This document shows positions 1 through 21,000 of a stretch of 64,000 nucleotides of DNA, one piece after another (position 1 is the stretch's first letter; every line of letters begins with the position of its first letter). The notes below the pieces were generated by a model. That model saw only the letters and a program-made list of their open reading frames with translations. It was not told where the DNA came from and did not search any database. The translations under genes were made by a program, and so were the position numbers. Source of the DNA: Candidatus Omnitrophota bacterium (GTDB lineage: Bacteria; Omnitrophota; Gorgyraeia; Pluralincolimonadales; Pluralincolimonadaceae); NCBI GenBank assembly GCA_043798215.1, contig JAZDOX010000038.1, forward strand, positions 5,659 through 69,658, given 5' to 3'.

Positions 1-3000
1 TTTATCTATGAATTGCCTGGACAAATAAATGGTCTGTGTAACTTGGTCGGAATAGCCGAACGACCAGTTGTTCTCATCTTCAATTATAATGCCCGGCACA
101 GGCTTTCCATTCGCATCCGTAACATCAACGAGAACCACTTTGGCGGCTTTCAATATGTCAACCACATCTTTATATCCCATTCCCAGTAATTTAGCGAATG
201 TCTCGGAGACAAGGCCATTGTATAAATCAGGCTCGTTAAATCCGCTAACATTACCATCGTATATCGTTGTCTGCGGACTATTTTTACAAGCTTCAAGCAA
301 GTCATCTTCCTCTATGTTGCCAAGGCCTTTTTGGATGGACTGCCCAAGAAAAGACTTAAATTCAAGTTCTATTTCAGCTTCTGTCACCCCGATGGGGGTA
401 AATTCTATTAAATCGCTTTCAATATTATCGAGATCCTCCAACGTTATATCGTAAGGAAGCGCGCCCTCTTCTAAGCAATAGCGCAGTACTCTCCATTGTA
501 ACAATTTTAAGTCCTTTATCGTATTTCTCAAACAAAAGTAATATACCTCGGTATTGGTGCCACCGCCACATCTGAATCCTTTTTCTATCAAATCAACGAT
601 AATCGATTTTGCCGCCGAAGCAAAATCATACGCTTCTTGAATATCATCATATTCTGTAATTATCTCTAACGCGCTTGTGCGGGAATAACCAAGGTTGATT
701 ATACTCTCAAGCATATCTTTCTTAGCCACCGCCTTATCATAACAAAGATCCTCTGTGCCGCTTTCGTTTTTGCCGGTGTATTTAAGAATAAAATCTAAAA
801 GCTCCCGGGAAGCCGAAGTAACCGTGCCGGTGTCTGAGTATACGAAATTGCCCGCACTCGTCTTGATGGCGGCTATCCTTTGCAATTTTGCCTTTATATC
901 CAGCGCGCGATCCAAAGCTTCACTGCAAGACATTCTCGCCAGCATAAAGTTGGCGCAGGCTATATTGAATCCATATTCATTGATTAATTTGTCTCTGACC
1001 AAGAGGCGCTCTTGCGCAATGGCAATTGCTTTGCTAATCCTGTTCTTATTTATAATCCGGAATGCCTCAGAACGAGTTAATCCTAAATCCATTAACTGGC
1101 AAAGTAACGATTTACCGTCCCTTTGGGCTGCTTTAAGCTCATCTATAATATTGATAGAGTGTGAAGAATATAATTCTAAAGATTCCCTATAAGTAAAACC
1201 TTGCAATCCTAATCCCCTTATAATCTCATTGCTGCCGCCTTGTCTCAGGAACTCGATCAAAGCCTTATATCCCTTACCGGAATAGATAAATTCACATAAA
1301 TAAACGCTTACTTTTCCTGTCTTAACTTCTGGGGAATTTTCTATAAGATAGGCCACGTCGCGCGCTCTGCCCAATAAAACCTCTGGATTCCTAGCGCCAT
1401 TGTTAATTAAATTCTGCGCGAAAGAACCGCTGAATCCTATATCTTTTAATTCCCTGATCAGGGAATTAATTTCGCCAAATAACGCGATGGCGTCATTTTC
1501 CGTTATCACCCCGTACGAAATCAAAAGATCCTTCGCGTTGCCATCGCTTAGCATGTCTTTTCTTACACCCCTGGTTGCCTCTATATTTTTGAATACATTA
1601 TCAAGAACAGCCACAGTTTTCACCATATTATAGGAATAGAGGCAATTTATTATTTCATAGACGGCTATTCCAGTTTGAACCAAGCGATCAAATTCGTTCA
1701 CCGGGAAAATCGAAGAGATCAATCTTCTTCTATAAGAAGCGGGATTCTTGCACATTTCATCCGTTATTTTATTATTATAATAATCAACCAGCGTCTTAAG
1801 TCTTGCGCTCAACGCATTATAATCATAGTTGAAATTCTTGTTTAAAATATTCTCCTTCTCTTGCGCGGTTAAAACGCCTTTCTCTTTAAGAAAATCGAGG
1901 CCGCCGCTATAATATCGGACAAGCGCGTTTGCCATTAAGCCGCTCTCTTCCGCTGAAATTCCCGCTTCTTTAAAAGAACCTGTCAACGTTTCTTTTAATT
2001 GGACTTCCTGCCTTGATAAGCCGCCTCCTCTTATCCTGTAAACCCCATTATTTTCGTAGAGAACGGCCGCCATATCCTCAAGCGCGCCGCCGACGAATAC
2101 CTGATTTTCTCTCAATAATCTCCACATCGCTTCCTGAAGTTCCTGGATCTCGGGAATTGAACTGTAGAAGCAGGTAATAACGACGGGATTGCCATCTCCA
2201 TCAAGTAATGGATTTCCGTTGGAATCTTCAAGAATAACCTCTTGTTCTGTCATCGAGAGAGTTGAACGAATGGCATTAAGAGCGGTTTGCTGTGTCGAAG
2301 TTATTATTTCTAATCCTTCATAGCGCTCCAGCTCGGCTATTTGGGCTAGTGCTTCGTTGAGAATAAAGATGGCATAATTGTGGTCTGATTCGCTGTCATT
2401 TTGGTTTCTGGCGTTAACAGCGGCCTTCAGACTGGTTATGGCTCCGTCGCTTAAGACAGCGGAGGCATCATCAATGATAATTTCTCCTTCGAAAATTTGA
2501 TATACCGCGTCAAAAGCGATATGCTCGGCTTCGTGGCAGAAAGCGGCTTCTTGTTCATTCATCGATAAGTCCTTTGATATTAAGATCAAAGAGCCTATCT
2601 TTAAGGCGCGGGCAGGGATTAAATCTCCGGCTTTGTAACCGCTTGGTATTGTATCTGTCGCCTCGTATACGCCAAAGGTGTCTATGCCTAACGCCTTTTG
2701 TATCTTTTCTATTACGCTCTGCGAAACAAGCGAAACTCCGGCGTTAAACTGTCCGCCTAAATCTACGATGGTATTCTCAGTCTCAACCAATTCCCTTAAA
2801 CGAACAACCGCCACGGTTAATTCTTCGGAGCCGCTGGGGGCGATCTCGATATCGCGGATGCGGGCGTCTAACTCGTCGGCAAACGAGCATCCGGCATTTA
2901 TTATCGGCTCGTGAGAATCCTGACTCTGCGCGGCATCTCCGATCTGTTCAACGGTAGACGCTTCCTTCTTGGTCAAAACGATCATATTTTCGATGAGATT

Positions 3001-6000
3001 AAAACCATCAAAGTCCCCTGCCACCTTAACTTCGCCAAGGATAGCGGGCAAGACATCTTTATCTTCATCGAAAAGATATCCGAATTTAGAAGCTTTTATG
3101 GCGGCGATCGCCAAATTCATAACCGAATCCGACATAAATGTGTCGAAAGCGATTACCAGGCTGCCGTTTGGAACCAAGCTGTCGTAGACGGCATTGAGCT
3201 CCTTAACCGCGCAATCCATATTATAGAAAAGAGTCGGATCGACTATAACCGCTATGTCTACGGTATTGGGCCTATCGGCAAAGTAAGCGGCGTTTATGTT
3301 CTGTTTGAGGGTGTCAACCATCTCGAAGCTAATATCCTCAAGCCCAAACAAATCCCTGTTTTCTTTTGCCTCCACCAAAAATTCAAGATTAACATCTATT
3401 CCTTTTATCGCAACCGTCTGGCCTGTGGCTTCTTGAAGGCCTCTTTGAAGCGCTAAAGCGTATGAGCAAGAACCGCAATTAACAGCCACAGCGTTAAGTC
3501 CCTCTTTGGCGGAATAATCTATCCTTGCGCTTCTGAGGGCATAATTAATATTCTCGGCAAATTTAGTGTCCTTCGCATATTGGTCTATTAACATTTGGGC
3601 CTGTTCTTTTATATCGCCTGTCTGCGCCAACACGAATTCTGCGTAATAATTTTCATATCCGGGGCTGCTTAAGAGATTGTATTTGGTCAGGCCTGCGGCA
3701 AGGCTGTCATCCAAAATCATTAACTGCTTTGCAACCTCATCTTTTAAGGCGCGGTTATCGGTTATCCAGTTGGGCAGATAAGAGACAACGATTGGGATTG
3801 CTTCATTGCCGCTCGCAATGCCGCCGGCGGCGTCATTTTGCCAGATGTGATAATAATACTGCTCATCAAAAGACAAATCGGGCTGCGCAATAAATCTTTT
3901 CTCGACTATACCTTCCGAGGCAATTAAAAGATGTGAACGATTTAATTCCGCGGCTCTGTCGTAATAACTAATGTTAGGCGTTAGATCTTTTAATCTCTCT
4001 TTAATCTCGCCAAGATTCGTTGAGGATAGGAAATTGCTGTTGTAAAATAGTGCGGCTTCTTTTACTTTTATACCTAATCTGTCTATTTCAGTATCGCAGA
4101 TATGCTTTATAGAATTGTGACCGTCCATATCATTGACATGGATCAGGACGTAAACATTCTTCCCATCTCTTTCACCCCTAATGATAACCCCGGAGCAGCT
4201 GGATAACTCTAAGATAACCGCAGCCTCGCCTTCCGGTATCTCGGCAACCATGAAATGATCAGTAGGAACATTTATCCTTCCACATATGGGCTCTTCGAAA
4301 CTGATCGTACGTTCAGTAAAGCGCGGGGTTGGCATATTGCTTTCCGATATCTCATAAGTTGTATATTCACTCTTTGTAACCTCTAATAAACCCGACAAAG
4401 TCCAACGTTCATAACTTGTTACCGCCTTTCTTAATTGCGCCTTAAAATCGGTGGTTGTTGCCGGCGAGACTGCGGCCAGCATATCTGAAACATCTACAGT
4501 TATATTTACTATATTATAATAAACGGTTTCGGTCGCGAAATCATCAACCGCCGCGCAAACACACCATCGGTATCCTAATTCGCTCTTATCCAGCGCTCCT
4601 TCTATAGAGAAATCTCCAAATTGCACTAACACTATATCATCGGGCGAATATTTCTCGTAAATCTCATTTAAGCTCTCGCCGTAATAATAACCGGTTACAA
4701 CATCCTTGCCGTCGATGGTCTTTATTACCCCGTAGGCGAAAGACAAAGGTATCTCCAACATAATTTCATTGGCGGCGCAAAGAGCGATATTGAACAAGTC
4801 CGTCTCGGCCTTCTTTGTTGTATATAACTGGCCATTCTGGTGGGTTATTACGCTGGATAAGCTGTCTGCGCTTAAGGGGTTGACGCCTTTAGGTTCTTCA
4901 AAAGACTTAAATGAGTCGCTGGAAGTTTCTCCGATGGCTATTGATTCATCCGACACATACGACCTTACTATCTCAACAGCGGTTGCGGTGGTAGAAACTA
5001 TGCTGTAGGATTCTACGCCGGCAGAAACCAAAGCGGATTCGCCCTTGGCCAACGTAATAGTCGGCTTGCCTGTTGCCCTTAATTCAACGGTTCCGCTTAA
5101 GACAGTGATTATCTGGAACTTCTCGTTCGTCTGCTGGTTAGAGAGAGTTGACATACCGGCCATATCTATCTTATCGACCTTAAAGAACTCGCAATCAACC
5201 AAAGTCTTTATCTCCGGCTGCGAAGTAACTTGAGGCGTCCTTATGAAGTCGTCTTTGGTCGTCTTTCTGAAATCAAGGACGTCCATACATTGGCTTATAT
5301 GAAGCTGTCTCTTTGGAAGCCTGTTCCAGTCCCATGCCCTGTAAGTGATACCGCTTGACTGTTGGATTTCGGCTATTCTGCATCCAGAGCCTATGGCGTG
5401 AATAGTAGTGGAAGGAATATAATACATCTCTCCTTTGGTAACCACGAATTTATTTAGATATTTATCGGCTATATCGATATTGCCGGCGTCTAAGTCTTTT
5501 CTAAATTCATCTCTTCTGTCTATTCCAAGCTCAGGATTATACACCTCTTCCTTAAAACCAAGATACAGAACGCTTCCAGGATCGGCGTCCAGAACATACC
5601 AACATTCGGTTTTGCCCAAATCGCCTTCCTTCTTGGCGTATTCATCATCTGGATGGACCTGAACAGAGAGGTTCTCGCTTGCATCCAAGAACTTAACGAG
5701 GATTGGATTCTCGCCATCGGTTATGTCGTTGATATCTTCGCCCATAATATCTTCACCTGCTATCTTTAACAGGGCGGGTATGGATATCGTAACGCCGCTT
5801 GTGGGTAAAACAACCTGGCTTGGGCTGTCCTTATGTCCGGACACTTCCCAGGACTCGCCTATCTTCTTATTGTCATAGCCGGAGAGGCCTTTCAGCGCGG
5901 CTATGAAATCTCCGCCCCAGGGCTTTTCGACCAAGTTATCCGTCTTCGGCTTTATTATCTGGCTCTTTAATGTGTTTATATCGGTAACAGCGTTATTGTA

Positions 6001-9000
6001 TTGGGTAATATACTCTTGTTTTTTGGCCGCTATCTGGGCAAGAGTAGCTGTCTGCATATTCGTCGCTATCTGGCCAAAGGAATACTGGTTGCCATATTCG
6101 GTCAAAACAACGTCCCAGTCTTTCTTTCCGTCGCGGGCTATATTGGTCTTCATACGGCATCTGCCGTTTACCGGATCATAGACATCGGTTAGAGCCTCGC
6201 CTTGCTTGAGGCTCATATAACCGGCCTCGACCACGTTATAGGCTATAGCATTCTGGGCGTCTAAACGAATTATCTTGGAGCCTATGACAATACAGTTCTC
6301 GACGTTCAATTCTTCGGCTGTTACCCCTATTAAGATACTGTTTACTATCTTGCCGCGTTTTATGTTGCAATCTCTCATAACAGAACCTGAAATAGTAACT
6401 TCCTGAGTTAGGGTGTTTGTCCCATCAACCCATCTATCGTCGGCAACTCCATAGAATTCTCTCATTGCCTTTCCTTCGGCGGAATCTTCCAAAAGCTTCA
6501 TATTGTTCTGATAATAGAGGTTTACCTGGCCGTAGTCCCACCAAAAGCTTCCATTTCCGACGTCTTTGTAGCCGAAGAGCCTCTTATCGGGAGACTGGGT
6601 CTCCAGATAATCTTTTACTTCTTTTGCCTTGCCCGATACACCCGAAGAAGTCCATTTTTGGTAGAGATCGGGATCTGTGTCGAGCTTTTCTTTCTTAGCA
6701 GTAAGTTCGGGATTAAAAACATCGAGAAGTTTATCAAGCGCCACTTTATCCCACGAGAAAGAACCCAAACTCTTTCCAGCCACTCTCTTGTCTTCCTCAT
6801 TTGGCGCAACCAACTCTACAGCCTGGTCATAAGGCGTCTTTTCTCTCAATTGAGCAACATCGTTGTTAGCGCCCAGAATAATCAGGCCGTAATCCTTAAA
6901 ACTCTCATCTAATTCAGCCTCTACTGCCAAAATTTCCACGTGGTGTTCCCCGTCGAAGCTAACATCGGCATTAGGTATAAAGACTTGATCTCCCCAGAAG
7001 ACGCAAAGCCTTCCATCACGGGTATCGGCAAATAGGCCGGTCTGATATATTACTTCCTCAAGAATGGTTACCGGTTCCTTTACCCCGCCAACATCAACCA
7101 ACTGGGGAGCTTTTATCGCCGGCTTGTTGTTGCCCTCGGCGCCCGGAAGAGGAGCCATCCTTGTCCCTTTACCTGCGGTGTGATACATTGCTATCTTCTT
7201 ACCCGCGGCTAACTCGGCCCCCAAATCTATCGAAGAAGCCATAGCCTTTAATTCAGCGTTGTTCCAGGCGTTTAGGCTACCCAATAGATTGCCCGCCCCG
7301 CCTGATGCCCAATCCGCTTCAGAGACCGAAAGAATGACCGCGCCGCTCTTGGTTACCTGACTGCGAGTAGCCTCAAGGCGGGCCTGCCAGTAATTGGCCT
7401 GGTCTTCTGTTGGAGAAACAACAATGATGTAATCGAAACCTTTATTTTGCTCTACAGCTTCCTTCATCTTATTGATAGAACGTTTGTGCTCGACTATCGA
7501 GGAAGTATCCTTTGAAAGCTCACATGTTTCCGCCATAAACGAAGCAAGAATCTTTTTCTTTAGCTTATCCGCCATATCGAATTTGCTACTGGCAGTGTCT
7601 AAATAAAATGCGGGATAGCCTGCGGTGGCAAGAATATTTATGATGAAATCCTCGATATTTAGCTTCAAGGTATTATCAATCCCGCCTTCTATCCTTCCCG
7701 TTGAAGCCAAACTCTGCAATGTCAAAGCCATAGATTCAAGGTAAAAAACGGGGGTATCCTGCAATCCTTCAAAATTATAGGTTGAAAGCAATTCCGTTCC
7801 ACCGGAGACGCTTTGCTTAATGGCCGCCGCAAGGACATTTATTTCGTTTACCAGCGCGGCTTTCATAAGCGTGTCGGAAACGATATCCAGAAAATCTTTA
7901 ACATCGTAGAGAAACAGAGGGTCGGTGGTTTCTTTAGCCGCCACAGCTTTAAGCGTTATCGCCATATTTTTAATGCGGGCGATCATCTTTATTCTCTTAT
8001 CTGCCTTAACAAGATAATCCGGTTCTTCTCCCGCCGCGCCGATCAATATTTCAGGCATAAGCACGAGAAAATCCGTCATCGTCAAATTCTCGCTAAGATA
8101 TAGAATCCCGTTTAAACGGTAATACGATCCGTTATTGGATAGAACCTTAACAAAGCCATCTTCGACAATCTCTACCCCTTCGTTTGTTCCTGTTGCCGCC
8201 GTCATCAGCGCAGCCACAAGCTTTGAGTTATCGTCGATATCTTTTAATTGCAAATCGAATATGTTATTAGCCGAAGCCATAACAACAAATTGCTCATAGC
8301 CGCTCATAGTCTCGGAAATACTCTTATCAAGTGCGCTGTCGTCGGCGGAGGTATGAATGCCGGCTCCGGTGTTACAGGGTTCAATGACGCCTTTCTCGAC
8401 AATATTTCCCTGTAGATGTCCTTCATATCCGGGTATGGTAAGCTCGGCGCCTTCGTGAGCGATAAGAGCTTTTATCTCATCTATCTTATTTTGGGCAATC
8501 AATCTGTCCATAAAATACTTCGAAAGAACTACTATCTTTTCCCCTGTGCCGCTGTCAACATAGGAATAGGCAACGCAATATTTATCCCTGTTTTCCACAT
8601 ATATCGCGGGGGCCTTATTCCAAGTCTCCATAACCTCAATACGAGAACCCTGGAGTGTGTTGGCAGTATTTCTGAATGTCGCAGCTTTTGTAACATCGCT
8701 TATCAAATCGAGATCATCGGCTATCTTATTTAAATCTGCGATTGAAGCGCCGGCTATATCGCCGTAGAATGAACTTGCGCTGGTTCCATTTTGCCAAACG
8801 GTCTTTATCTTTCCTGCCTGCCTTGCCAGCGCTATCTCCACTTCAACTGTTTCGTTTGCGACATTCTCGCCTTTCTGGCCGCCCTGGGTTAAGTCAACGT
8901 TTTCCTTAGACCACTCTTTTGCCTCATCCAAAGGTTTGGCGTCCGTTGCGGATTTATCGTCAATGCCTTTGTTGTAATTCCAGTATAAAGCTCCATCGCC

Positions 9001-12000
9001 ACCCGATGTCTTGGTTGAATTCAAGTTATCTGTCAGCGATTTAGAGGTGTTGGCCGTCTGAAATTCCTCGAGCATCCAGGCTTTACCCGCTGGAACATTG
9101 GATACAAGACCGCTTAAATTTCCCATCCAGTCGTAATAATGCAGGGCGCAGTAATCAAGTTTAGACTGCGCGCCGCTTAAAACGCTTATGTGTTTCGCCG
9201 ATACGCCGGCGGTAATCAGAATATTTTTATTTACGGTTTTTATGACATCGGCGCAGGCATTTATAAATTCGCTTATGTCCGAGCGGCTTATAGGCGAAGA
9301 CGCTTTATAGGCGTCGTTGACAAATTCCCACCCGCCGCCTTCCACAGACTTAATAAGCCATTCCGGCTCGTTAATTATGTCTATCGTCATAAGATTCGGA
9401 TGATTTCCGAAGTCGCTCATAAACGGTTTTAGGAAATTATCGAAGAATTCTTGCCTCTTTTCCACATCGGTAAAGATGGCCGAATAGCCGCCCAACTGCT
9501 CTCCGTTTTCTATTTTAGCCTTATTGGCTATGTGAAAATCAACAAGCGTAAATTCTATTCTTATTCCGAACTCCGCAGCGATATCAAGAAGAACTCTAAT
9601 ATCTGTCTTGAATTGTGTGTTGTATCCGATTATATTTCCGGCGGCGTCGAATAGACTAATACCGTTATCCAATAATCCCATACGCACAAGGCTTATATTG
9701 TGGTCTTTCATATCCTTGAATTGCGCGCGCACAATATCGCTATGTTTGGATACGCCATTTCCTGCCCCGCCAAACCAGTCTGTGGTTCCGAAATTTTGTC
9801 CATAGGAAGAGTTTCCTTGAGAGCCTCTGTAATTTGTGCCCACAAAGAACCTCTGCTCGCCTTCCACGTAGAAGTTGCCGTCTTTGACTTCAACCGGCGC
9901 AAGGCGGCCGGCGGTTTGAAATTTTTCCGCCATTTTTTGGACTTCTTCTGTCTTCTTCTCAAGGTCAACCTTTTCATTATGGGCAGCAACGATATTTTCC
10001 ATCTCAGGGGCGACAACGCCTTCTATCTTTTCCGCCGGCGTTGTAACTTCAGCTATTGAGGGCGCGGGTTCTTTGGCAATATCGGCCTTTCTTCCGGCAA
10101 GTTTAGTTCTTGCAAATTCCGCGAAGGTCCCGTCGGTTGTATTCTCGAATCCGGCTAAATTAATAACCAATACATCCGCCTGCATCCACACCTTCTGGCT
10201 GTTTTCGTCGAAAACAATCCTGAACTTAACCCCGGAGTTCGTAAGATCGGTGTGATATTTGGAATAGACCCTGCCGCCGCTCACAACCTTTCCATCCCCT
10301 ATCACTTCATCCAAAACGTCTATCACTGCTGTAGCGCTGAAAATATCGGTTACGCTACGATCTACCTCGACACTAAAACCCTTGCCTTCGAATTGGCTCG
10401 TAAAATTCCTTATCTTCTCTGAATCGGTCAATCTGAGTATTTCATCTTCTATAGCATTCTTTATGGAATCTATGCTTTGCTCAAGGACGTCTTCGTTTAT
10501 AACATCCTCTAAGTTATCTTCCAGATACTTAAGCATCGCCTGTTTCTTCTCCTCAAGCTCGGCGTCGTCTTTGGCTCCCGTGTCAAGATAGACCTTGAGC
10601 TCCTCAACGTAAGCATTCCAGAGAACTTCTACTACGGCAATCTTATCCTCTAATTCTTTTACTCTGGCATCAACGTCTATAGTCGCGTAATTTATGCCTT
10701 TCTCCGAATCATAACCAAGCGTCTTTTGCTGTTCGAGCAATGTTCTCAACGCAGACTTCCCGCGGCATATAATCTCAAGCCACATAGCGCGTTCGCCGTC
10801 AATGTTGTATTTCTCGGCGCGCAAATCCCAGTAATCGGCTTCGGTTTCGTATTTGGCTTTAACTAACTCTATCGCGTTTTTAATCATAACGGTTATTTCG
10901 TCAACGCAAGCCGCGAGAGATTTAATAGACGGATTATTTGGATTCTTGAGCTGATAATTGGCCGCGGAATTCCACGAATTCGTAAACCCTCCGGCGGCGC
11001 CGGAATTCTCAAATGACGAAAATGTTGCCGTATCTGGATGCTCCACAATAAACGGCATATCTTTAGGCGCGTTTGTTAACGGATTTTCGCCGGTCCGCGA
11101 TTTAACGATGATGAAATTGATGTTATTTATGCCGCCGGTATATTTCAATTCGCCGGCCAAACCCGCCTTTTGCGAAGACAGGCTGACACCTGCCAATTTT
11201 CCGGTTAGGCCTCTGTTAACAATAGGTTGAACGCATTTATCCAGAAAAGATCTAACCTGCTCTAATATAAACGCGTTTGACTGGCTGCTTCCTCCTCCTT
11301 CATCCTTCGCTATAATCTGATCAACGTTGTCAATAAGGACAACCCCCATAAAGGCATCATGATTTATATAATTCTCGACAAAACTATTCCAGAAATTATT
11401 AAAGAAAGCGTCCCCGCTTCCTCCCCTGACTATCTCTGAAAATCCGGCAGCGCCTAAACTATTCTCGTCCAGCAGCGTAAACATAACCTTAATATTGTGT
11501 TTTTTGGCCAAGTCGAGAAGATTCCTCACGTCGGACCTGAAAGTCTCAAGCCAATTAATCACTTTTATCTCGCCGTTTTCGTAACGACCGAACATTGCGC
11601 TTCCATCGCCTAATAAATTCATCGAGATCGCGCGGACGCCATTTTGAGCCATTCTTCCAAGAGCCGCGTCAACTCTTGTAAGATTGGCGGTTATGCCGTT
11701 TGCGGCATCTCCAAAATTCGTTTGGGCCGAACCGAATGCTTGGCCGGTTGTTGCGTCAATAAAGGTGTTTGAACTGGTTCCGCGGACGTTCCATATCTGG
11801 TCATCAAGATATATGTCCGCGCCTTTTACAGTTACGACGCCTGTGCTGGAAACCTTTTGCGCTTCTAACTGATGTAACCGCTGTTTCAATTCATTTGCCG
11901 TAGCGGAAATTTTCGCTTCCAACTCGGCGGCTAAATTAGCCGCCGCTGTCTTGGCATTCTCTTTCAGGAATTCATTGGCGTCTTCAAGTTCGTAGATGTA

Positions 12001-15000
12001 GTTCTTGAAAATACCCTCATAAAGAGGGCCGAGGCCGGAAACAGGCTTAGTAGAGATATCCGCATTGGCACAGAGATTCTTTATATTTTCCGGCATCGCG
12101 TCTAAATCAGCGGCTCTCTTCTGATTTTCTATCTCGGCAATAAGTTCGTTCGAGCGCTGTAAATAGCGTTCTTCGGAGATTTCATTTCGCTCAAAACTGA
12201 AATAAACCTCGTTTAATTGCAATCTCGCATTGGCCATTCTTATTGCGGCCTCATTCGCCCTTTGGACCCTCTCCGCGGCATCATAGATAGCGTTTATGCG
12301 GGTATATTTTTCGTTATTCAAGGAGTTTAATTCCGCCCAGAGAATTCTTGTTGTTTCATCTTCAGTTCTATAAATTCTGTCGCCGGTAGAAGTCAATATA
12401 TCCTTTAACTCCTCCTCTTCCTGCTCTAATTGCGTCTTGGTCGTCTCGATTTTAGCTTCTGCTTCCAGGAACCGGCTGTCTATATCGGTAATTGCCGCTT
12501 TTGTCCCGGATATCATCGAGAGTATCGAGTCGGCTACTATCTCATTGGCCTTAGACTCGGGAAAATTGGCGAAGGTTTTAGCCGATATTTCACCAAGATC
12601 AAGCAAGGAACCTGCCATAACGTTGCGATAATCCTGCCAAGCGGCGGCATTCTCTTCTTCTTTCAGCTCAACTTCCATTGCCGCTTTTTCATAATCTCTG
12701 CCTGTTTGCGCTATCTTTTCGTCAAGGCGCGCCAACTCTGCTTTGTCGATCGTTAATTGCGCCTCCGTATCGGAAAGGATCTTCTGCTGCTCGGCCGCGG
12801 TTAAAGCGGCGCTATCCAAACATTGCTGATAATAGGCCATAACCTCCTCAGTCTGGACAAGCTGCCCCTGCGCGCGGCTGCAATAACGGCCGGATTGATA
12901 AAAATTTTCGGACGCTATTAATAATTGCAGCTTAAGATACGACAACTGTTTTAAGAGGCCGTCGGGATAACGCCGTATCTTGTCGCCAAGTATGGCCGGA
13001 ACGGGAGAATCCCTGCGAGGCGTAACCGTTCTCCCATTGCCTAATAATTCCTGCAACGCCTTAACTTTCATTAGATATATTTGGAATTCTCCGCCAAAAT
13101 CCTGTTCTCTATATTTTTCACGCAAAGTGACAGGATCGAGCTCGGCCAATTTAACATCTATAAAATCAACCGCTTCGTCTATCTGTTGTTTTATCTCCTC
13201 AAGCCAAACCGCGTTCTTCTTCTGGTTCTTATTGGCTATCTCTATATCTATCTTACAAGACTCTGCAACCCCTGCGATATAGGTCATCTCATTCTGTATT
13301 CTTGCTTTTAACGCGGCGGTGTCGCCTACAGCCCAGCCTATCAGATATTCCCTGAAATCCTCAAGCCGCTTAATTCTTTCTTCAACCTTAATCTTTTCCT
13401 TTCCCGCTTCAATGGCTTCTTCGGCGGCCTTCTCTTTGGCAACAATCGCCTGCCCGAGAGCCTCATCGCTCTCTCTGACATAGTTCTCCTTGACTACCAG
13501 CGATTGAGTCCGCTTCATAGTGTCTTCCTTCGTAGGCGCGAAAAGATTATTGAAATAATTAAGGAACTCGGTCTTCCAGCCGATTATTGTGGCTATAGTT
13601 CCGATAATAATGGCCCACGCAACAGGGCCGAGCATCCCTTTCTCGAACCATTTCTTGAAATAGTCGCCCACCTCGGAGAAGGCTATATCGGTGCCTGGTA
13701 TTCTCGTATAACCAACTTTGACCGTAAGGCCTGTATGGGCGGTCTTGTTCCACCAGGAACCTCTTCCTGTCGTTAACTCCGCTATAGCATGCATAACAGC
13801 CGGTATGTGGAAAGTTAAATATAGAGGAGTCCCGAGATTCGCGGTAAAGAGGCGCCATTTCATACCGCGCACAGCCTCGCTCTCATATTGAGTGTTAATT
13901 ACTAACCTTACAGTGTCCCATACCACCGCTCCAAGCAGGCCTGCTGATAGCGTTACTAAAGGCCCTGCGGATAAGAGGGCTGCGGCTGCGGCAGGCAAAG
14001 CTGTAAGGATAGCAAAAGACTTTATCTTTGATGAAGCGGCTGAGCCTGACTCTAACTGGCCGATATATTGCTCAGTCCTTCTTATTTCATTCTGGCAGGA
14101 TAGCCTAAGACGTTCGCCGTCGGCGCGCGCCTTCGCCAAACTCGCTTGCCCCTCTTCTAATCTTCCTTGGGCTATCAATTCATAAGCGTTGTCAAATTGG
14201 AATCTCTTCGGGTTCTTCTTATCGTAGAATTGTTTTATAATTCTGTCGTAGTAAACGTCTCTAGCCACTTGTGAATCTGGGAGGTCTTGTCCAAACTCTC
14301 TTATCTCATCGAGAGCGGCACTCATATCCCTCATAGATTTATCAAAAAGGAACTCATCGTTGGCTCCGGGAGACAAGATAGATATTTCGGTAAGTAGTGT
14401 CTGTATGAGTATCGGGGCAAGGACTAAGCTTAACCCGGCTATAGTCGGATTAAGGCCTAACATCTTAAACCAGCTGAATAGATACTCATAGCCCTGGACT
14501 ATACCGAATAAGCTTAAACCCTGTTTTATCGCAAATCCCAGACCATACAGCATAGTCACAATAGTGGTTGCCATCTGGAATATAGAAGACGATCCGCCGC
14601 CGCCCAAGATAAGCATATAATTGAATATACCGGTTATCCCGACTGTCTTATAGGCTTCCATAATATTTCCGCCGCGGGTATAGACAAGAAGTGTCTGCAG
14701 ATAACCCTTTGTCCAGCGGGATCTTTGGCCGGCCATACGCCCGCCGACATATTCATCTATCGCCTCTTCGCCGGTTACAGTGTTTGCTACCGTAGTTCTG
14801 TATCCTTGGAAGAATATCTGCATGCCAAGGTTGCAGTCTTCGGTTACATTATATCCGTCCCATCCGCCTAATTTCCTCAATGTCTTCACATAAAAGAAGT
14901 TGGAGGTTCCGCCTAACGGAACAAGCGTTCTCTTAGTTATAAAACCAGGCAAGACTAACTTAAACCAGCTCTCGTAATCTCCAACAAAACCTCTGGCGTT

Positions 15001-18000
15001 CCAGGTCCTGGGCCAGTTAAACCAATCGAGCATACCCTGTATGGCGGCAGGAACGTTCCTTCTGGCATAATCGGCGGCTGTCATACGCTTCTTAAATTCT
15101 TCTTTTATGCCATCGGAAGAAGAATTATAATTGGAGTCATTCATAATATCCCGGAGTATATCCATTCCATCACAAGCATCCATAAGAAGATAAAGGTCGT
15201 ATCCGGTAACCTTATTGCCTCCAACAGCGCCGGTTTGATCATTGAGATGCTCCAGTAATTGCTTGGCCCAGCTCTTCTGGTTAGCCTTTAAGAAAACTGG
15301 ATCCACGCGGGAGAGATCTATGCTGCCATCGGAGGCAGTCATCATATCGCACAATACCTCCAAGGACGGGGCTATCTCTTCGGCCTTTTGTTTATAATCA
15401 AACGAGATGCCGAATCTTATGCAGTCGGCATAAAGATCCGGAGCATCAACCTTCAGCCTATCAGCCGAGACGCTATCCGGATCAGCCATAGCTCTATCAG
15501 CCAAATCTTTCATAACCGATTCTATCTTTACATAAGTAAATATCATCTTCTTTACCTGAGGAGGCTCTGGCGCGTCTTCGGCATCCCAGATAACCGCATA
15601 CTCGCCTTTGGTAAAGTGCATAGCGTAGGTTGTGGACCACGGCTTGGTCTGGGCCTGGATCGGCTCGCCAACTAAATTGGGGGCGCGTTTGGGAGTAGGC
15701 ATAATCTGGATCCATTCGGGTATCTGGCCTTTCTCCTGTAAATCGTAGAATATGGATACCGTTTTGGTATCCCACTCCTCGCCGCATATTAATATCTGAA
15801 GTTTGGGATAGTCTACCTTCTTCATATTTTTCATTAAAAGGCCTGCAACATCCTCTTCTCCAACCGCAGGAAGGTACACGGTTACAACAGGCAGGACATC
15901 CCAAGTCCTGACCTCCTGCCTTACTACGTCTTGCCTTACAGAGTCAAGGGATGAAATTATCTCATCGGTATCCGCGTCTGCGCTGAATAACTTCTTTAGG
16001 ATTTCAGTAGAGAAAATGTTCGAATATATCTTTGATACAATTTCTTTCTTTGTTGTTGCGCCTCCCAATCTACTAAGCGCGTCTTTATCGGCCTGCGGGG
16101 CGTATTGGATAAACCTTGAACAAAACTCTGTGTCGTTCATATTATCGAGTATCTCTTCGGCCACCTTCATCGAGAAACGGTCTATTATCTCATCCTTGGT
16201 TAACGTGCCGAATATGGCATCCAATAAAGCGTCTTTATCCTGCGAATTAAGCGTGGCCTGGACATCTGCCCTGCTAAGGATTCTCCTTTCGGGATGCGTC
16301 CCGCGCGGGTCGCGCTCATTGTCATTACGCGTAATCATCTCGACCATCTCGGAAAATGAGCGTTTATTTACTATGTCAAAAGTTAGACTGTTTAATTCTG
16401 CGGGCTCAGGGCTTACTACTTGAGATAAACCAAGGGAATCGGCGGCAGTTTTATTCTTGGCTAAGATGCCCTTAACACACATCCATACCTTATGCGCCAT
16501 AATAATAGTCGACGTGCCTATCATAGCCAGCGTCGAATACTTCAAGAGCGTCATTAAGCTTTCAGAGGGGCCGAATTGCGAAGCGCCCCATGCCACAGCC
16601 GCTGTGATAAGCGCGCCGACAGTTCCGGCAAAGACCTTCTGTCCTGTGGTAAAGGTGGTAAATGAGGTGTGCTCCTTGCCCATATTCTCGCCCATCTTGG
16701 TCATATCTATAAAAGCGGTTTTTCGCGTATTGAGGACACTGGTTAATTCCTGTCTCGCGGTGTCAAGGGTAGTGTCCGCGCCATCGGCAGATAAAGTTTT
16801 TACGGCTTTGGCCGCATCGTTATACATCGCCTGATAAAGTCCGGCGGTAAGGCGGTGGAGCTCGACGAACTTTAACTCCGACTTGGTGTCGGCTCTATAA
16901 ACCATATCGCTGGTAACCGAATCTATCTTTACCTTCACGCCTCCGGGCTGTTTTAATTCTTCGGCTTCGGCTATAGCGGCCTCCGTCTGTGATAATAAAC
17001 TGTTTGTATATACAACCCCGAACCAGCGGTCAAGGGTTTCATCCTCTACATTCTGCTTCTGGGCCTTCTCGGCGTCGTTTAGCCTTCTCATAAGCGGCAT
17101 ATCGCTATAAGCAAGCTCTGGCATAACCATAGTGGCGCTTAAGGAATCGTGCAAACTGTTTAATTCCTGTTTTAAGTTATCGAGGGCATCTTTCTGTTTC
17201 TTGGCGCCGACGTTGAACGTCGGAAGATTGGGATTGTTGATATTGGTGTATAATTCTTGGACGCGGGCTATGATACCGTCAAAGACGGAATTATAATCCG
17301 CTCTATTATTACTTAAATTAAACCTTGAGGTATTAAGCGCAGACTTGGCAGTTTCCAGTTCACTAAGCAAGCCCGAGAGAGCGCTGTTGACTCCGGCGGG
17401 ATCGCAGATGTTCTGAGTCTCTTTTATCTGAACAAGAGCGGCCTTCTGGGCGTTATCAAGATCTCTCCACTTTTGGTCTATTCTCTGTATCGTGGCATCT
17501 AAAGTAGTTTCTGGTATATAATTTTTACTTATAGCTTCTTCCAGAGCAAGGCCGCGATACAAAGCGTCTCTTAACGGCGTAAGCCCGGATATTACCTTAT
17601 CCATAAGCTTTGCCTGGCTTGGCCTGCCTTTTAGCTCATCTACGGTCTTCTTCCACCAGCTCTTGGGGTTTAATATCTTTACCGCATCCGCCCTCATCCA
17701 CTTAATCATCTTGTCAACGAACCCGCCTTTGTGGGTAAGATCGGCGTCATATTTCTTGATGAACCTTCCGGCGGCCTTTAAGGCTTCGTATGGATCAGAG
17801 ACATTAACTACAGGCGCTTGTTTTCCTGCGCCCATCTGGGCTTCATAATGCTCTAACTCTATAGGATTATTGGCTTGTTTTATGAGTTCCAGATTATCGA
17901 GTATGGTTTCGATCTCCTCTCTTTCCGCCACAATACCGTTTGCGGAAAGATCGATAAGGATTTTATCTATCGCTCCTTCGCGTGTTCCGCCTGACTCTGA

Positions 18001-21000
18001 CATAACCTGGTCGTACATCTCGACAATCTCATCTATGGCTTTCCTTAGCTGGTCGGCGTTTTCGGCTTCAGCTTCTTCCTCCATAGTAGCCTCTATCTCG
18101 GCTATCTCTTCGGCCTCTTGTTCACTAACCTCTTCCTCGGCTTCTTCTTGCGAGAGTAAAGGCTCTGCCAAAGCGGTTTCGATTGCGGCGCGTCTTGCGG
18201 CAATCCTGCCTATCAATCCGCCTTGCGGCTGAAGGCTTGTGTCTAAATAGTCATAGAGCTTTCCCTGATTTATAAGTCCATTATTAAAAATCCTATCGAT
18301 TAAATCTTCCGCCTCTTTGAGAAGATTCGAAGCCATAGCCAGATTGCCGGACATCTCGGCTTCTTCAACATATCTTAAGGCCAATTCGTAACAGATGAGA
18401 TCTGTTGCCCCGTCAGCATCCAAAGGAAGAACATCATCGTGCAATCCGGATAATTGAGCTTCCGCGTAACAGCCTTCCTTCAAAGTATCCAAGGAATCAT
18501 AATAATCGCTCCAAATGAATTCCTTGCTTACGCGCCTGTCGGCGGCTTCGGTCAAATCGATCTGGATGTATAAGCTATTGTCTGTGCCGGTTGCTTGGTC
18601 ATAATTCGCGCTAAGCCGCACTCTGTTTGCGACGTGCCTTCCATGCTCAACCGAAAGAACATCTTCTATATCAGCCTCTAATCCTATTTTATTTGCGGCG
18701 AAGGCAAATAACATAGAGAGGCCTAAGCAAGAACCTTCCCGTAGAGCTACAACTTCTCCCGGAAGCGAGATATCTTTGTTATATTTGAAGTTCTCCACGA
18801 TAAAATCGGCAAGCCCTGAAGCTATCTCGGTCTTCTCTTTGATGAGTTCTTCTTCGCTCATCTCGCCTTTGGCGGCTTTGGTTTTAGCGGATTCTAATCT
18901 AGCTTTTGATACGGTTATTAAATTTACTCCTCTGTCGTAAAAAGCCTTTGAGGATATATTATTAACTATTTTATTTACAATAGCAACCTCAGTATCCTTA
19001 TTGAAAAACCTTCCGACTATGAAATCTATCGCGCCAAAGGCAGGGGCTATTTCATTTTTGCCCATAGCGGATGTAAGCTCTGAAATAAGCGAGGACAAAT
19101 TAGACAGCGAAGAGTAAGAGGGCAACTCGCCCTCAAGTTCACTGGCATAGGAATAGATGTATTTCTGCGTCTCTATCTCAATTATCTTATTGTATACGGC
19201 TTTGCGGTCGGCAACTGAACCGACTTTGGCATTGCAATATAGCTTGCTAAATTCACTTATCTTTTCTCTTGCCTGCATAAAATTCGTGTAATTACCTGAA
19301 GCGCCTGCAACCGCCCAATCCGCCTGCATACTATCCAACAGGTCATTATACGCGGCCAAAAGGATCTCTTTATCGCTCATAGCCTCATTAAAGATATCTT
19401 CGAAGAGCTTTCCTTGATTAGACGGTCCGAGAACATATGCGCCTTTATCGTAAGCATCCTTAATTGCTTTCAAAAACGAGATCTTGCTAAAATCAACAAA
19501 TACTATACGGTTATTCGTAAGGAGGCTTATTATTTCGGTTAGTCTCTCGTTAAGCAGTTTACGGTCAGAAACCGCCAATTGGCTAAATTTATTCAACGCA
19601 TCTTGCGCATATTTCTGATCATCCAGATCCGCGGAATCTTTATATTCGATATAAGTATTAAGCCGTATATCCGGTATAGCGACCCTATTGACAATATCGC
19701 TGACATCTATCGCGTCTATAACCCTTGTCCTGTGAGCTATGCTGGCGGAGTCAAAAGCCATCGCGAAATTATTGCCACCGGTAATATAAGGGCCTTTCTT
19801 CGCCTCAACGAAATCTTTTATAGTTCTATCATCGGAAGACAAAGGCATAGTCAGCTTTTGAATCCCAATCAGCTCCATAAGCCGCGGAGCGTTCTCCTGA
19901 AGAGCGCATATCGTGAACTTGCTCCTCATCAATTTTGCCTTGTATTCCAAAACAAACGCCAAATCGTGAAGAAAATCGTTTGTGGCCTTGTCCATAGCAT
20001 TGCCGTTTATGGAATATGTCCCTTCCTCCACCTCTTTTATAGCCTCGACCATTCTCTCCATTAAGCGAACGGCATTCATCTCCTCCATAGCCGCGCGAGC
20101 ATCATCGGCCCCTTTCATATGTGTTATCTCATGACGGACTATCTCTGTTAAAACATCAAAAAAACTTAAGGAGCTGTCTATCTGCAGTTTCTCGACAAAT
20201 TTCGAAAATATATCTCCGGACCTTTCGGTTACGTATCTTGCGCGCGCGGGGCCGTCGGCGTCTCCATTATTCAATTCGCTTCTTGTCTTTAACTCGAGTT
20301 GAACGCCGGATATCTCTTCCAGTATAAGTTTTAGCTGGCCATAATACATAGTGTTTCCGAAAGGATGGTCTATCAAGGCAACGGCCGGGGAGTTATATTG
20401 CCTTAACGCTTCGATATCTTGGCGTAAGCAGCATAACCTATTCTGATTATTGACATAGGCTTTAAAAATCTGATATTGTTCGTCATCGAGTAAATCTCCC
20501 ATCTGCTCTATGTCGGCGTTTAATTTTTCGCCGTTGTTTACGATTACAAACTTCTGCGAAGTATAAGCAGTTAATCTCCGAACCAATTCCATAATACATA
20601 GTTTCATATTCTCAACCATATTAGCATCGGTAATATTTTTCCCCGCGGTTATTTCTTCCGCGCTCGAATATCTGTATATTTGCATCCTGAATCCGCATCT
20701 TAAATCATAATTGGTAAGAGCGAATTTTACTACGTTTAGCGCGGCGTCTATTTGTTCTTTCGTAGATAGACCTTCGGCTCTTATCGTTACTTCCATAGGA
20801 CATTCGGAAGCAAACGGCGCTAAGACGCCCCTTATATTGTAACTGTCAAACATATATCCTTCTAAATCGCCGAATTCGACGCAATAGGGGCCTTGTTTGC
20901 CCGCTACCTCCAGATACAACTTTATTCCGGTAGCCTCCTCTATCTTCTCTCCTATTTCAATGAGCATCTCACAAATGCTAATGTGCAAAGCATAAGCGGT

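Follow-up and report, generated by a model that had tools for sequence, protein, structure and literature searches.

A candidate beta-mannan synthesis and trimming module within a giant reading frame of an Omnitrophota bacterium

Giant proteins with carbohydrate-active domains are already known from Omnitrophota, and the general idea that they contain 'sugar metabolism modules' is present in the literature. The current view sees in them weapons that serve attachment and the digestion of cell walls. The stretch of DNA analysed here, 64,000 nucleotides of a contig from a Candidatus Omnitrophota bacterium (JAZDOX010000038.1 in assembly GCA_043798215.1; this whole stretch is called the window), carries on its minus strand a giant open reading frame (ORF) in which a glycosyltransferase of family GT2, two barrels of the glycoside hydrolase family GH5 type, a sugar-1-phosphate nucleotidyltransferase and a phosphomannose isomerase follow one another. 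The question raised by this locus is what a membrane protein might do with such a set of enzymes. Here we argue that the segment may be a module for the synthesis and trimming of a beta-mannan-type polymer, fed by its own transferase-isomerase unit and built into a giant membrane protein, a reading to which we give about an even chance of being right. The segment suggests the building of polysaccharide besides degradation, and its coherent biosynthetic block of activated-mannose supply, processive synthase and matching endo-hydrolase would give it a testable function, the making of a beta-mannan-type surface polymer.

The reading frame and its domains

The frame runs on the minus strand from 54681 to base 1 of the window with 0 stops in 18,227 codons; the remaining two frames of this strand hold 1,433 and 1,370 stops. 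Its start ATG lies at 54678, with a Shine-Dalgarno sequence, GGGGGAG, 7 nt upstream. From this ATG the ORF is at least 18,226 amino acids (aa) long, and it extends past base 1 of the window, with its C-terminus beyond. G+C content is even along the ORF (41-47%) and GC skew is steadily negative. Residue i of the ORF lies at window position 54681-3(i-1), and its features, from the N-terminal side of the segment onwards, are as follows (TM, transmembrane; AF2, AlphaFold2).

1..54678, minus strand: the giant ORF (no stops, Shine-Dalgarno at the start, N-terminal membrane anchor at aa 55-80)
16471..16647, minus strand: N-terminal TM hairpin of the GT2 module (aa 12679-12737; hydropathy scans; two TM helices precede the glycosyltransferase domain in short relatives too)
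14647..15894, minus strand: catalytic GT-A domain of the GT2 module (aa 12930-13345; PF13632, invariant columns, core of the AF2 model)
15568-15588, 14824-14847 and 14713-14727, minus strand: GT2 motifs DAED, TED and QRSRW (the last at aa 13319), from the sequence
13573..14646, minus strand: TM and interface-helix region of the synthase (aa 13346-13703; hydropathy scans)
13735-13755, minus strand: gating-loop-like motif WWNKTAH (family-invariant W-x-K-T-x-H)
aa 13682-13703, minus strand: further strong TM helix after the gating-loop-like motif (hydropathy scans)
11866..13572, minus strand: coiled-coil-like stalk of ~570 aa (aa 13704-14272; composition rich in E, A, L and K; equivalent C-terminal helical tail in the relative P0121)
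11002..11865, minus strand: degenerate GH5-like domain, GH-A1 (aa ~14273-14560; paralogue of GH-A2)
9901..11001, minus strand: helical linker of ~370 aa between GH-A1 and GH-A2 (no Pfam match)
8884..9900, minus strand: intact GH5 beta-mannanase-like domain, GH-A2 (aa 14928-15266; PF00150, family profile)
9358-9372, 9127-9147 and 9058-9075, minus strand: GH-A2 motifs NEPEW with acid/base E15105, H-Y-Y, and LEEF with nucleophile E15206 (sequence, family alignment)
7459..8883, minus strand: segment of ~475 aa with no assignable function and no TM helix (aa 15267-15741; hydropathy scans)
6418..7458, minus strand: sugar-1-phosphate nucleotidyltransferase domain (aa 15742-16088; family alignment, AF2 model, Foldseek)
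7141-7173, 6985-6999, 6835-6849, 6667-6681 and 6529-6543, minus strand: transferase motifs GKGTRMAPLPG (aa 15837), FWGDQ, REK, DTDP and WWDYG, from the sequence
6007..6417, minus strand: left-handed beta-helix (aa 16089-16180) and C-terminal helices that complete the transferase (regular short beta-strands, model residues 355-446)
4951..5964, minus strand: class I phosphomannose isomerase (aa 16240-16577; PF20511, PF21621, TIGR00218, 1qwr)
5911-5925, 5833-5859, 5644-5667, 5596-5613 and 5383-5406, minus strand: isomerase motifs KPWGG (aa 16253), GESWEVSGH (aa 16275), SVQVHPDD, KTECWY and TIHAIGSG, from the sequence

We are highly confident that the anatomy of the segment, in its domains, their order and their single frame, is as listed. 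A preliminary description of 4950-15900 had named five domain types, and all of them were recovered in the order it gave and in one frame with 0 stops; neither a stop nor a start with a ribosome-binding site was found between them. That range holds the domains but leaves the TM hairpin of the GT2 module just outside, and the direct joining of the domains that it implied has to be given up, since the coiled coil of ~570 aa and the segment of ~475 aa without assignable function lie between them. The degeneracy of GH-A1 and the lack of recognisable domains over most of the ORF (Pfam matches cover only about one tenth of it, with long stretches free of any match) could point to an assembly chimera or to a pseudogene-like mosaic of non-working domains. 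The absence of the contig from the genome, metagenome and protein collections that were searched, where an exact 54-mer and two flanking proteins had no identical entry, could be taken the same way. Such an origin is hardly credible for a frame that runs 54.7 kb without a stop where each other frame of the strand has about 1,400, that is uniform in composition and that has a proper Shine-Dalgarno sequence ahead of its start. Furthermore, the GT2, transferase and GH5 domains keep every family-invariant residue and the isomerase scores above the cutoff of a curated equivalog model.

The GT2 domain, as had been proposed, belongs to a synthase. It scores 41 bits with PF13632 (cutoff 27) and keeps 40 of the 40 invariant columns in a family alignment of 104 sequences, where DAED, TED, QRSRW and W-x-K-T-x-H are all invariant. 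Its GT-A domain carries an insertion of ~160 aa with respect to its relatives (aa 13050-13212, window 15046-15534, by BLAST mapping). The AF2 model has a mean pLDDT of 68.8 (~90 for the catalytic core), and in the PDB it comes closest to hyaluronan synthases, BcsA, the Pyrobaculum mannosyltransferase PcManGT, plant CesA and chitin synthase. GT-A motifs, flanking TM helices and a gating-loop-like motif, which together mark the processive membrane GT2 synthases, are all present, the TM part with moderate confidence, and on its conserved sequence features the module is a complete membrane-embedded processive synthase. Ordinary GT2 relatives of ~625 aa stop a few residues past W-x-K-T-x-H. In the giant ORF, in its closest GT2 relative (P0121, 33% identity) and in P0355, the motif is followed by one strong TM helix, and in the giant and P0121 a long helical tail comes after this helix. 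The tail of the giant is the stalk at aa 13704-14272, a putative coiled coil by its composition, for which no Pfam match was found.

Two glycosidase barrels had been described, one of them with NEPE. The second, GH-A2, is intact: PF00150 matches it with 30.1 bits (cutoff 23.5), and both catalytic residues of GH5 are in place, the acid/base Glu of the N-E-P motif and the nucleophile Glu on strand 7. GH-A2 alone finds the GH5 beta-mannanase 2c0h in the PDB (E 7e-9), and the profile of its family finds only GH5 endo-beta-1,4-mannanases there (2c0h at 1.4e-26, then 5y6t, 3vup and 4oou), with a full-length alignment to 2c0h that spans both catalytic Glu residues. A full HMMER search of 1.84 billion representatives gave 715 relatives, of which 150 are listed and form the basis of the survey below, 17 of them being proteins of at least 1,500 aa; the best among the matches listed is 42% identical and ~570 aa long. 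A word-indexed homologue search with aa 14270-15740 was empty at E<=1e-3, an effect of its word filter, because the full HMMER search yielded these 715 GH5-family matches. GH-A2 keeps every family-invariant residue, and the invariant columns include E287, which is aa 15206. Pfam recognises only 7 of 42 of these relatives and largely misses the family, a large GH5-like one that is closest to animal-type mannanases and is a by-product of the present analysis. The neighbourhood of one member of this family was housekeeping or uninformative.

The first barrel, GH-A1, does not stand as an enzyme. It is related to GH-A2 (BLASTP 2e-19; family HMM, that is hidden Markov model, 2e-28, covering beta-strands 1-6 only), but the catalytic NEPEW has become DNVDQ (11317-11337), the C-terminal third, with the H-x-Y and nucleophile region, is not alignable, and the domain has no Pfam or PDB match of its own. 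Judged by these substitutions, GH-A1 is homologous to GH5 but catalytically dead and not a functional member, and it is probably a binding pseudo-enzyme. The linker at 9901..11001 was matched by none of the 150 listed HMMER relatives.

No match to aa 15267-15741 was found in Pfam, in NCBIfam, in the word-indexed search or in the 150 listed matches. From aa 15742 to 16577 the chain corresponds end to end to whole free-living proteins of ~836 aa, with 40-44% identity. Its first part had been called a nucleotide-sugar pyrophosphorylase with hexapeptide repeats, which agrees with its fold and motifs but not with the Pfam models: PF00483 reaches 18.4 bits, under its cutoff of 21.2, the beta-helix part gives no Hexapep (PF00132) match even at E up to 10, and among further sequence matches GlgC appears at 4e-7. 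Its homologues have no precomputed Pfam domain over the transferase region, and a sequence-only PDB search with this segment gave nothing useful. The AF2 model made from 70 homologues (pLDDT 95.3, pTM 0.94) has a Rossmann-like domain and then a beta-helix, and Foldseek places it closest to the FKP GDP-fucose (GDP, guanosine diphosphate) pyrophosphorylase, ADP-glucose pyrophosphorylases (GlgC), the GDP-mannose pyrophosphorylases GMPPA/B, and VTC1 (E 1e-12 to 1e-9); the beta-helix domain is present in all these structural neighbours. All 36 of the 36 invariant columns in the 70-sequence family alignment are kept, with GKGTR, FWGDQ, REK and DTDP invariant.

The isomerase, described as a cupin of the phosphomannose isomerase type, is of class I. 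It scores 137.4 bits with TIGR00218 (manA class I, an equivalog model with cutoff 116.2), 30.1 with PF20511 (cutoff 22) and 43.4 with PF21621 (cutoff 27). Its alignment with the B. subtilis structure 1qwr (E 7e-34) is full-length, with HPDD, KTECWY and the HA of TIHAIG on identical residues. Class I phosphomannose isomerases share the motifs Q-x-H-P, K-x-E and H-A, and the zinc ligands of the C. albicans enzyme are Gln, His, Glu and His. The Q position of SVQVHPDD is K in 1qwr, and the ligands are assigned here by motif only.

Activated mannose and the predicted polymer

The best evidence at hand for the substrate of the transferase is the company that its family keeps. Family members occur as transferase-isomerase-phosphomannomutase proteins (~1,440 aa, mostly Dehalococcoidia), as transferase-isomerase proteins (835 aa), as phosphomannomutase-transferase proteins (~1,000 aa) and alone (~500 aa), the last in bacteria, archaea and eukaryotic algae. 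Because the family is fused to both isomerase and phosphomannomutase, the transferase would act on mannose-1-phosphate. Relatives P0025-P0120 are nucleotidyltransferases of ~500-540 aa with a beta-helix and no Pfam model, mostly annotated 'hypothetical', and they include Chrysophaeum and Mantoniella transcripts. The same fusions suggest that these form an unrecognised, widespread family of mannose-1-phosphate nucleotidyltransferases, a second by-product of the analysis. Free-living transferase-isomerase relatives sit in housekeeping neighbourhoods.

The combination of synthase and hydrolase recurs. Among the matches listed, a GT2 homologous to that of the giant co-occurs with the GH5-like family in 5 of the 17 proteins of at least 1,500 aa. 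Omnitrophota contribute four of the five and Elusimicrobiota the other. P0297, an Omnitrophota member of this set (6,414 aa, partial), combines a GH5-like domain and the homologous GT2 with PGM_PMM domains and a transferase that PF00483 matches at 65 bits; the only NCBIfam matches of this transferase are ManC-type (GMP_PMI 9.6e-40, mannose-1-phosphate guanyltransferase 1e-19). In P0355, an Omnitrophota fragment, the order is GT2, TM helix, GH5, more TM helices and an epimerase/dehydratase domain that also matches a GDP-mannose-dehydratase model. The gene adjoining P0121 codes for a protein of 1,179 aa whose transferase best matches GMP_PMI (4.5e-20). The P0121 locus (L018; Joint Genome Institute 3300032731, contig Ga0335114_11352236, 1-18797) is a row of large same-strand genes, in order a VWA protein, a Metallophos/LigT-like protein, the GT2, an HD protein with the ManC-like transferase, a protein of 544 aa without assignment, and one of 5,459 aa that carries another transferase. 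In gene content, this row resembles part of the giant gene in unfused form.

Three independent links, by fusion in the giant and in P0297 and by adjacency at P0121, thus tie the GT2 lineage to mannose-1-phosphate transferases, which fall into two unrelated families. This triple linkage is hard to explain otherwise, and activated mannose is therefore the likely substrate of the GT2; its use of GDP-mannose is suggested by association, through these three cases and the mannanase-like partner domains. As judged from their domains, further Omnitrophota giants follow the same module logic, and their supply enzymes are not homologous to those found here.

A further mannanase-like domain is found far towards the N-terminus.

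48082..49164, minus strand: separate GH5 endo-beta-mannanase (aa ~1840-2200; Pfam; PDB 8gf3 at 7e-53, 3pz9 at 2e-50, 1rh9 at 2e-45)

This domain, whose mannanase likeness had been noted before and is borne out by the match to 8gf3, is a much closer mannanase relative than GH-A2, and a weak mannanase galactose-binding-like match lies just N-terminal to it. It is predicted to be a second, independent mannan-directed activity within the giant protein. The mannose theme of the preliminary description is thus upheld and strengthened by the capture of a whole enzyme with mutase-fused relatives, by the mannanase-only matches of the GH5 domains and by the ManC-type links, and less so for the donor sugar and the nucleotide, which we infer. 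The likeness to AlgA/ManC logic holds for the two jobs and fails for the proteins, which are not homologous: the isomerase is of class I and the transferase belongs to a family without a Pfam model.

GT2 enzymes invert, so that GDP-alpha-mannose would give beta-mannosides, the bond that beta-mannanases cut, and plant CslA, also a GT2 enzyme, makes beta-1,4-mannan from GDP-mannose. In the mechanism that we propose, the isomerase would turn fructose-6-phosphate into mannose-6-phosphate, and a phosphomannomutase, acting in trans or encoded beyond the window, would give mannose-1-phosphate. The transferase would make a nucleoside diphosphate (NDP)-mannose, most likely GDP-mannose, which the inverting GT2 would polymerise to a beta-linked mannose-containing chain threaded through its own membrane channel. 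On the stalk, the dead GH5-type copy would bind the emerging chain and the live copy would trim it, as BcsZ does for bacterial cellulose. The product would add to the surface coat or to contact with host or prey cells.

Evidence on the other side and membrane topology

Several observations weigh against the mannan synthesis reading, and they concern the donor sugar, the completeness of the pathway and the membrane. Among relatives of the GT2 that bear a name, the nearest are annotated 'cellulose synthase/PNAG synthase-like' (PNAG, poly-N-acetylglucosamine) or 'XagB', its NCBIfam matches are an XrtP-associated glycosyltransferase, CelA and PgaC, and its best structural matches use uridine diphosphate (UDP)-sugars. 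It could consequently make a cellulose-, PNAG- or hyaluronan-like polymer from UDP-sugars, while GDP-mannose went, for example, into a compatible solute or into the glycosylation of proteins or lipids and the GH5 domains acted on foreign mannan; the housekeeping neighbourhoods of the free-living transferase-isomerase-mutase proteins would fit such a division. We regard this as unlikely, since the names are generic and the NCBIfam scores all lie far under their curated cutoffs, since ManC-type mannose-1-phosphate guanylyltransferases accompany both the closest GT2 relative and another Omnitrophota giant, and since the hydrolases next to the synthase are mannanase-like and not cellulase- or PNAG-hydrolase-like.

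The supply of mannose also has gaps. From the modelled fold, the nucleotide used by the transferase may be guanosine triphosphate (GTP), as in the closest fold (FKP), or ATP, as in the next closest. An HMM made from the mutase parts of 14 relatives and run at maximum sensitivity matched nothing in the visible 18,227 aa, so that the middle step of the pathway is lacking from the visible protein and the 'self-contained' machine of the preliminary description is not borne out. The best match to the transferase-isomerase is 44% identical, with nothing near-identical and no close orthologue, and a metagenome scan with this segment gave no full-segment relative above 44% identity and no giant gene.

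The most direct conflict comes from topology. The predictions come from two simple hydropathy scales, one of them that of Hessa, and the GT2 model is moderate in this part too. No TM segment was found on either scale in aa 13704-18227. If the gating-loop-like motif is cytosolic, as access to the active site demands, the single TM helix that follows it would place the stalk, both GH5-type domains and the transferase-isomerase outside. This would place the GH5 domains, normally non-cytoplasmic, on the same membrane side as the transferase-isomerase, which needs cytosolic GTP and sugar phosphates. In contrast, strong TM helices separate the GH5 domain from the cytosol-type enzyme in P0355, and two TM helices stand after the motif and before the transferase in P0297; with these extra helices in its relatives, the giant ORF is the odd one out. 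A TM helix overlooked between the GH5 domains and the transferase was sought and discarded, as the sole weakly hydrophobic stretch, aa 15533-15551, contains Asp, Glu and Pro and fails the Hessa scale. An internal start for the transferase-isomerase was likewise rejected: Met at aa 15739 aligns with the starts of the homologues but has no Shine-Dalgarno sequence, unlike the true start.

If the topology prediction is right, the transferase-isomerase and the GH5 domains would be displayed on a long stalk outside the predator's own cytoplasmic membrane, and would work only once this end of the protein has entered, or touches, the cytoplasm of an attached host or prey cell. We think this quite improbable. 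If true, a nucleotide-sugar pathway would be delivered on a giant surface protein, and the victim's fructose-6-phosphate and GTP would be diverted into activated mannose. A similar conflict, with sugar-metabolism enzymes in regions predicted to be outside, is reported for Omnitrophota giants by West-Roberts et al. 2023 (bioRxiv 10.1101/2023.11.21.568195) and by a second paper. The present segment sharpens the puzzle of how cytosol-type sugar-nucleotide enzymes sit in such regions, and we take its predicted topology as an open point and not as a refutation of mannan synthesis.

Placing both activities on one membrane side would also suit a protein that only degrades and salvages, with GH5 domains that digest mannans or glycoproteins of prey or environment, an isomerase and a transferase that process the sugars, and a GT2 that is unrelated or glycosylates something else. 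The strong N-terminal GH5 mannanase, together with the LamG domain and RHS repeats that Pfam finds in the N-terminal part of the ORF, speaks for this, and West-Roberts et al. 2023 read 'Archaeovorin'-type giants as machines for attachment and cell-wall degradation, with sugar-phosphate enzymes predicted outside. However, freed mannose requires a kinase and ATP before either enzyme can act, neither of which is available outside the cell, and a nucleotidyltransferase is anabolic and offers no step from salvage to glycolysis. The GT2, furthermore, is a complete processive synthase with all its invariant residues, and its recurrence with the GH5-like family and with mannose-1-phosphate transferases elsewhere argues for a functional link. 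We consider degradation and salvage alone unlikely for this segment.

A third possibility, raised for such proteins by West-Roberts et al. 2023 (bioRxiv 10.1101/2023.11.21.568195), and for our segment in the preliminary description, is a polyprotein, in which the chain is cut into enzymes for different compartments and fusion serves co-expression. A candidate protease is encoded near the N-terminus.

52912-53334, minus strand: C39-peptidase-like domain (aa ~450-590; Pfam match; plausible catalytic Cys, C457 in NCASRA, and His in GGHYIVL)

The substrate of this domain could be the giant chain itself or something else. A polyprotein would also agree with the end-to-end match of the transferase-isomerase to a complete free-living enzyme, and with the equivalent parts being separate adjacent genes at the P0121 locus. 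Nevertheless, cleavage alone moves no segment back across the membrane, so that the topology problem stays, and inspection by eye of the module boundaries gave no convincing double-glycine leader sites. We consider processing of this kind improbable as the explanation of the fusion; it is compatible with mannan synthesis and does not exclude it.

Surroundings of the segment and comparison with known systems

Outside the segment, a few features of the giant ORF and its flanks may be recorded. Window 48082-50570 (aa ~1371-2200), probably extracellular, combines a LamG-type domain, the weak galactose-binding-like match and the GH5 endo-beta-mannanase. An internal duplication of ~160 aa with 26-28% identity lies at window 45306-46635 (aa ~2682-3125); no domain was assigned to it, and it is the sole internal paralogy in the giant ORF besides the GH5 pair. 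After the isomerase there is a weak signal of an S-adenosylmethionine (SAM)-methyltransferase-like region (Methyltransf_31, E 0.003-0.007, below cutoff; window 3154-3489, aa ~17065-17176), a possible modifier of the sugar or of the polymer; searching the PDB by sequence with the region after the isomerase gave nothing useful. Upstream of the giant start codon (window 55.4-63.4 kb) are ordinary genes for CinA, LigT and two histidine kinases. These two neighbouring sensor kinases occupy window 59375-63437 on the minus strand, and one of them, a hybrid, matches the receiver domain in three stretches. The flanking CinA shares 61-71% identity with its counterparts in Candidatus Omnitrophota metagenome-assembled genomes. 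At the CinA loci of the relatives (L002, L007-L011, L015 and L017, all Omnitrophota), the neighbour of CinA is an unrelated, secreted-looking protein of ~1,085 aa and no giant is present, so that the position of the giant gene is not conserved.

The closest known counterparts of the whole protein are the Archaeovorin-type giants (West-Roberts et al. 2023, bioRxiv 10.1101/2023.11.21.568195; the V. archaeovorus protein has 39,678 aa), which come from the same phylum as the CinA flank indicates for our ORF. They share an ORF of tens of kb, an N-terminal anchor, a C39-like domain and glycosyltransferase-, glycoside hydrolase- and methyltransferase-like domains scattered in mostly unannotatable sequence, and also cytosol-type sugar-phosphate enzymes in predicted outside regions. 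Our ORF, of at least 54.7 kb, has all these features, with weak methyltransferase matches. That paper emphasises GT5 and GT1 and reads the role of the giants as degradative; the giant here has GT2. By term search, the isomerases named there are triosephosphate, glucose-phosphate, isopentenyl-diphosphate and peptidyl-prolyl isomerases only, with no phosphomannose isomerase among them. A divergent SecA-DEAD domain is reported in most full-length giants, and NUDIX and SAM-methylase domains are reported too. In the visible 18,227 aa of our ORF, whose C-terminus lies outside the window, SecA-DEAD and NUDIX gave no match at E up to 0.01 and methyltransferase gave a weak one (E 0.003). A search by term of the two papers on Omnitrophota giants found no processive GT2 synthase, mannanase-like hydrolase or dead copy of it, mannose-activating unit or biosynthetic reading.

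With BcsA and BcsZ, hyaluronan synthase and CslA, the segment shares a processive membrane GT2 (DxD, TED, QxxRW and a gating-loop-like motif), a fold that matches hyaluronan synthase and BcsA, and an endo-hydrolase partner that fits in specificity, analogous to BcsZ. Sequence similarity to BcsA is marginal, and CslA is a precedent for a GT2 that makes beta-mannan from GDP-mannose. Those systems distribute synthase, hydrolase and nucleotide-sugar enzymes over individual proteins. The giant has them fused in one, and its GT2 also has no PilZ domain, a 160-aa insertion in GT-A, and an extra TM helix and coiled coil past the gating loop.

ManC/AlgA enzymes consist of a PF00483 transferase and a type II (PF01050) isomerase. 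The unit in the giant resembles ManC/AlgA/XanB (type II phosphomannose isomerase; TIGR01479) in having two activities in one chain and in the same order, transferase then isomerase, which there serve polysaccharide synthesis (alginate, xanthan). It differs in its transferase, of an FKP/GlgC-like fold with a beta-helix and no Pfam model, and in its isomerase, of class I and not a PF01050 cupin; neither TIGR01479 nor PF01050 matched the window segment, which falls outside the ManC/AlgA type. True ManC-type transferases are found instead in the related giant P0297 and beside P0121.

FKP, the Bacteroides L-fucokinase/GDP-fucose pyrophosphorylase (PDB 9iit, 9iis), is the best structural match to the transferase and its beta-helix (E ~1e-12, TM-score 0.54-0.60), and it too joins a GDP-sugar pyrophosphorylase to an enzyme of the same pathway. 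Identity is ~10%, the giant has no kinase domain, and the fusion partners of its family, isomerase and mutase, point to mannose and not to fucose. The nearest likeness is with the transferase-isomerase(-phosphomannomutase) fusions of Dehalococcoidia/Chloroflexota and others (P0001-P0024). These are free-standing proteins of 835-1,450 aa, many with phosphomannomutase, whereas the unit of the giant is embedded and without mutase; over 836 aa the two are 40-44% identical, with the same domain order and the same invariant residues.

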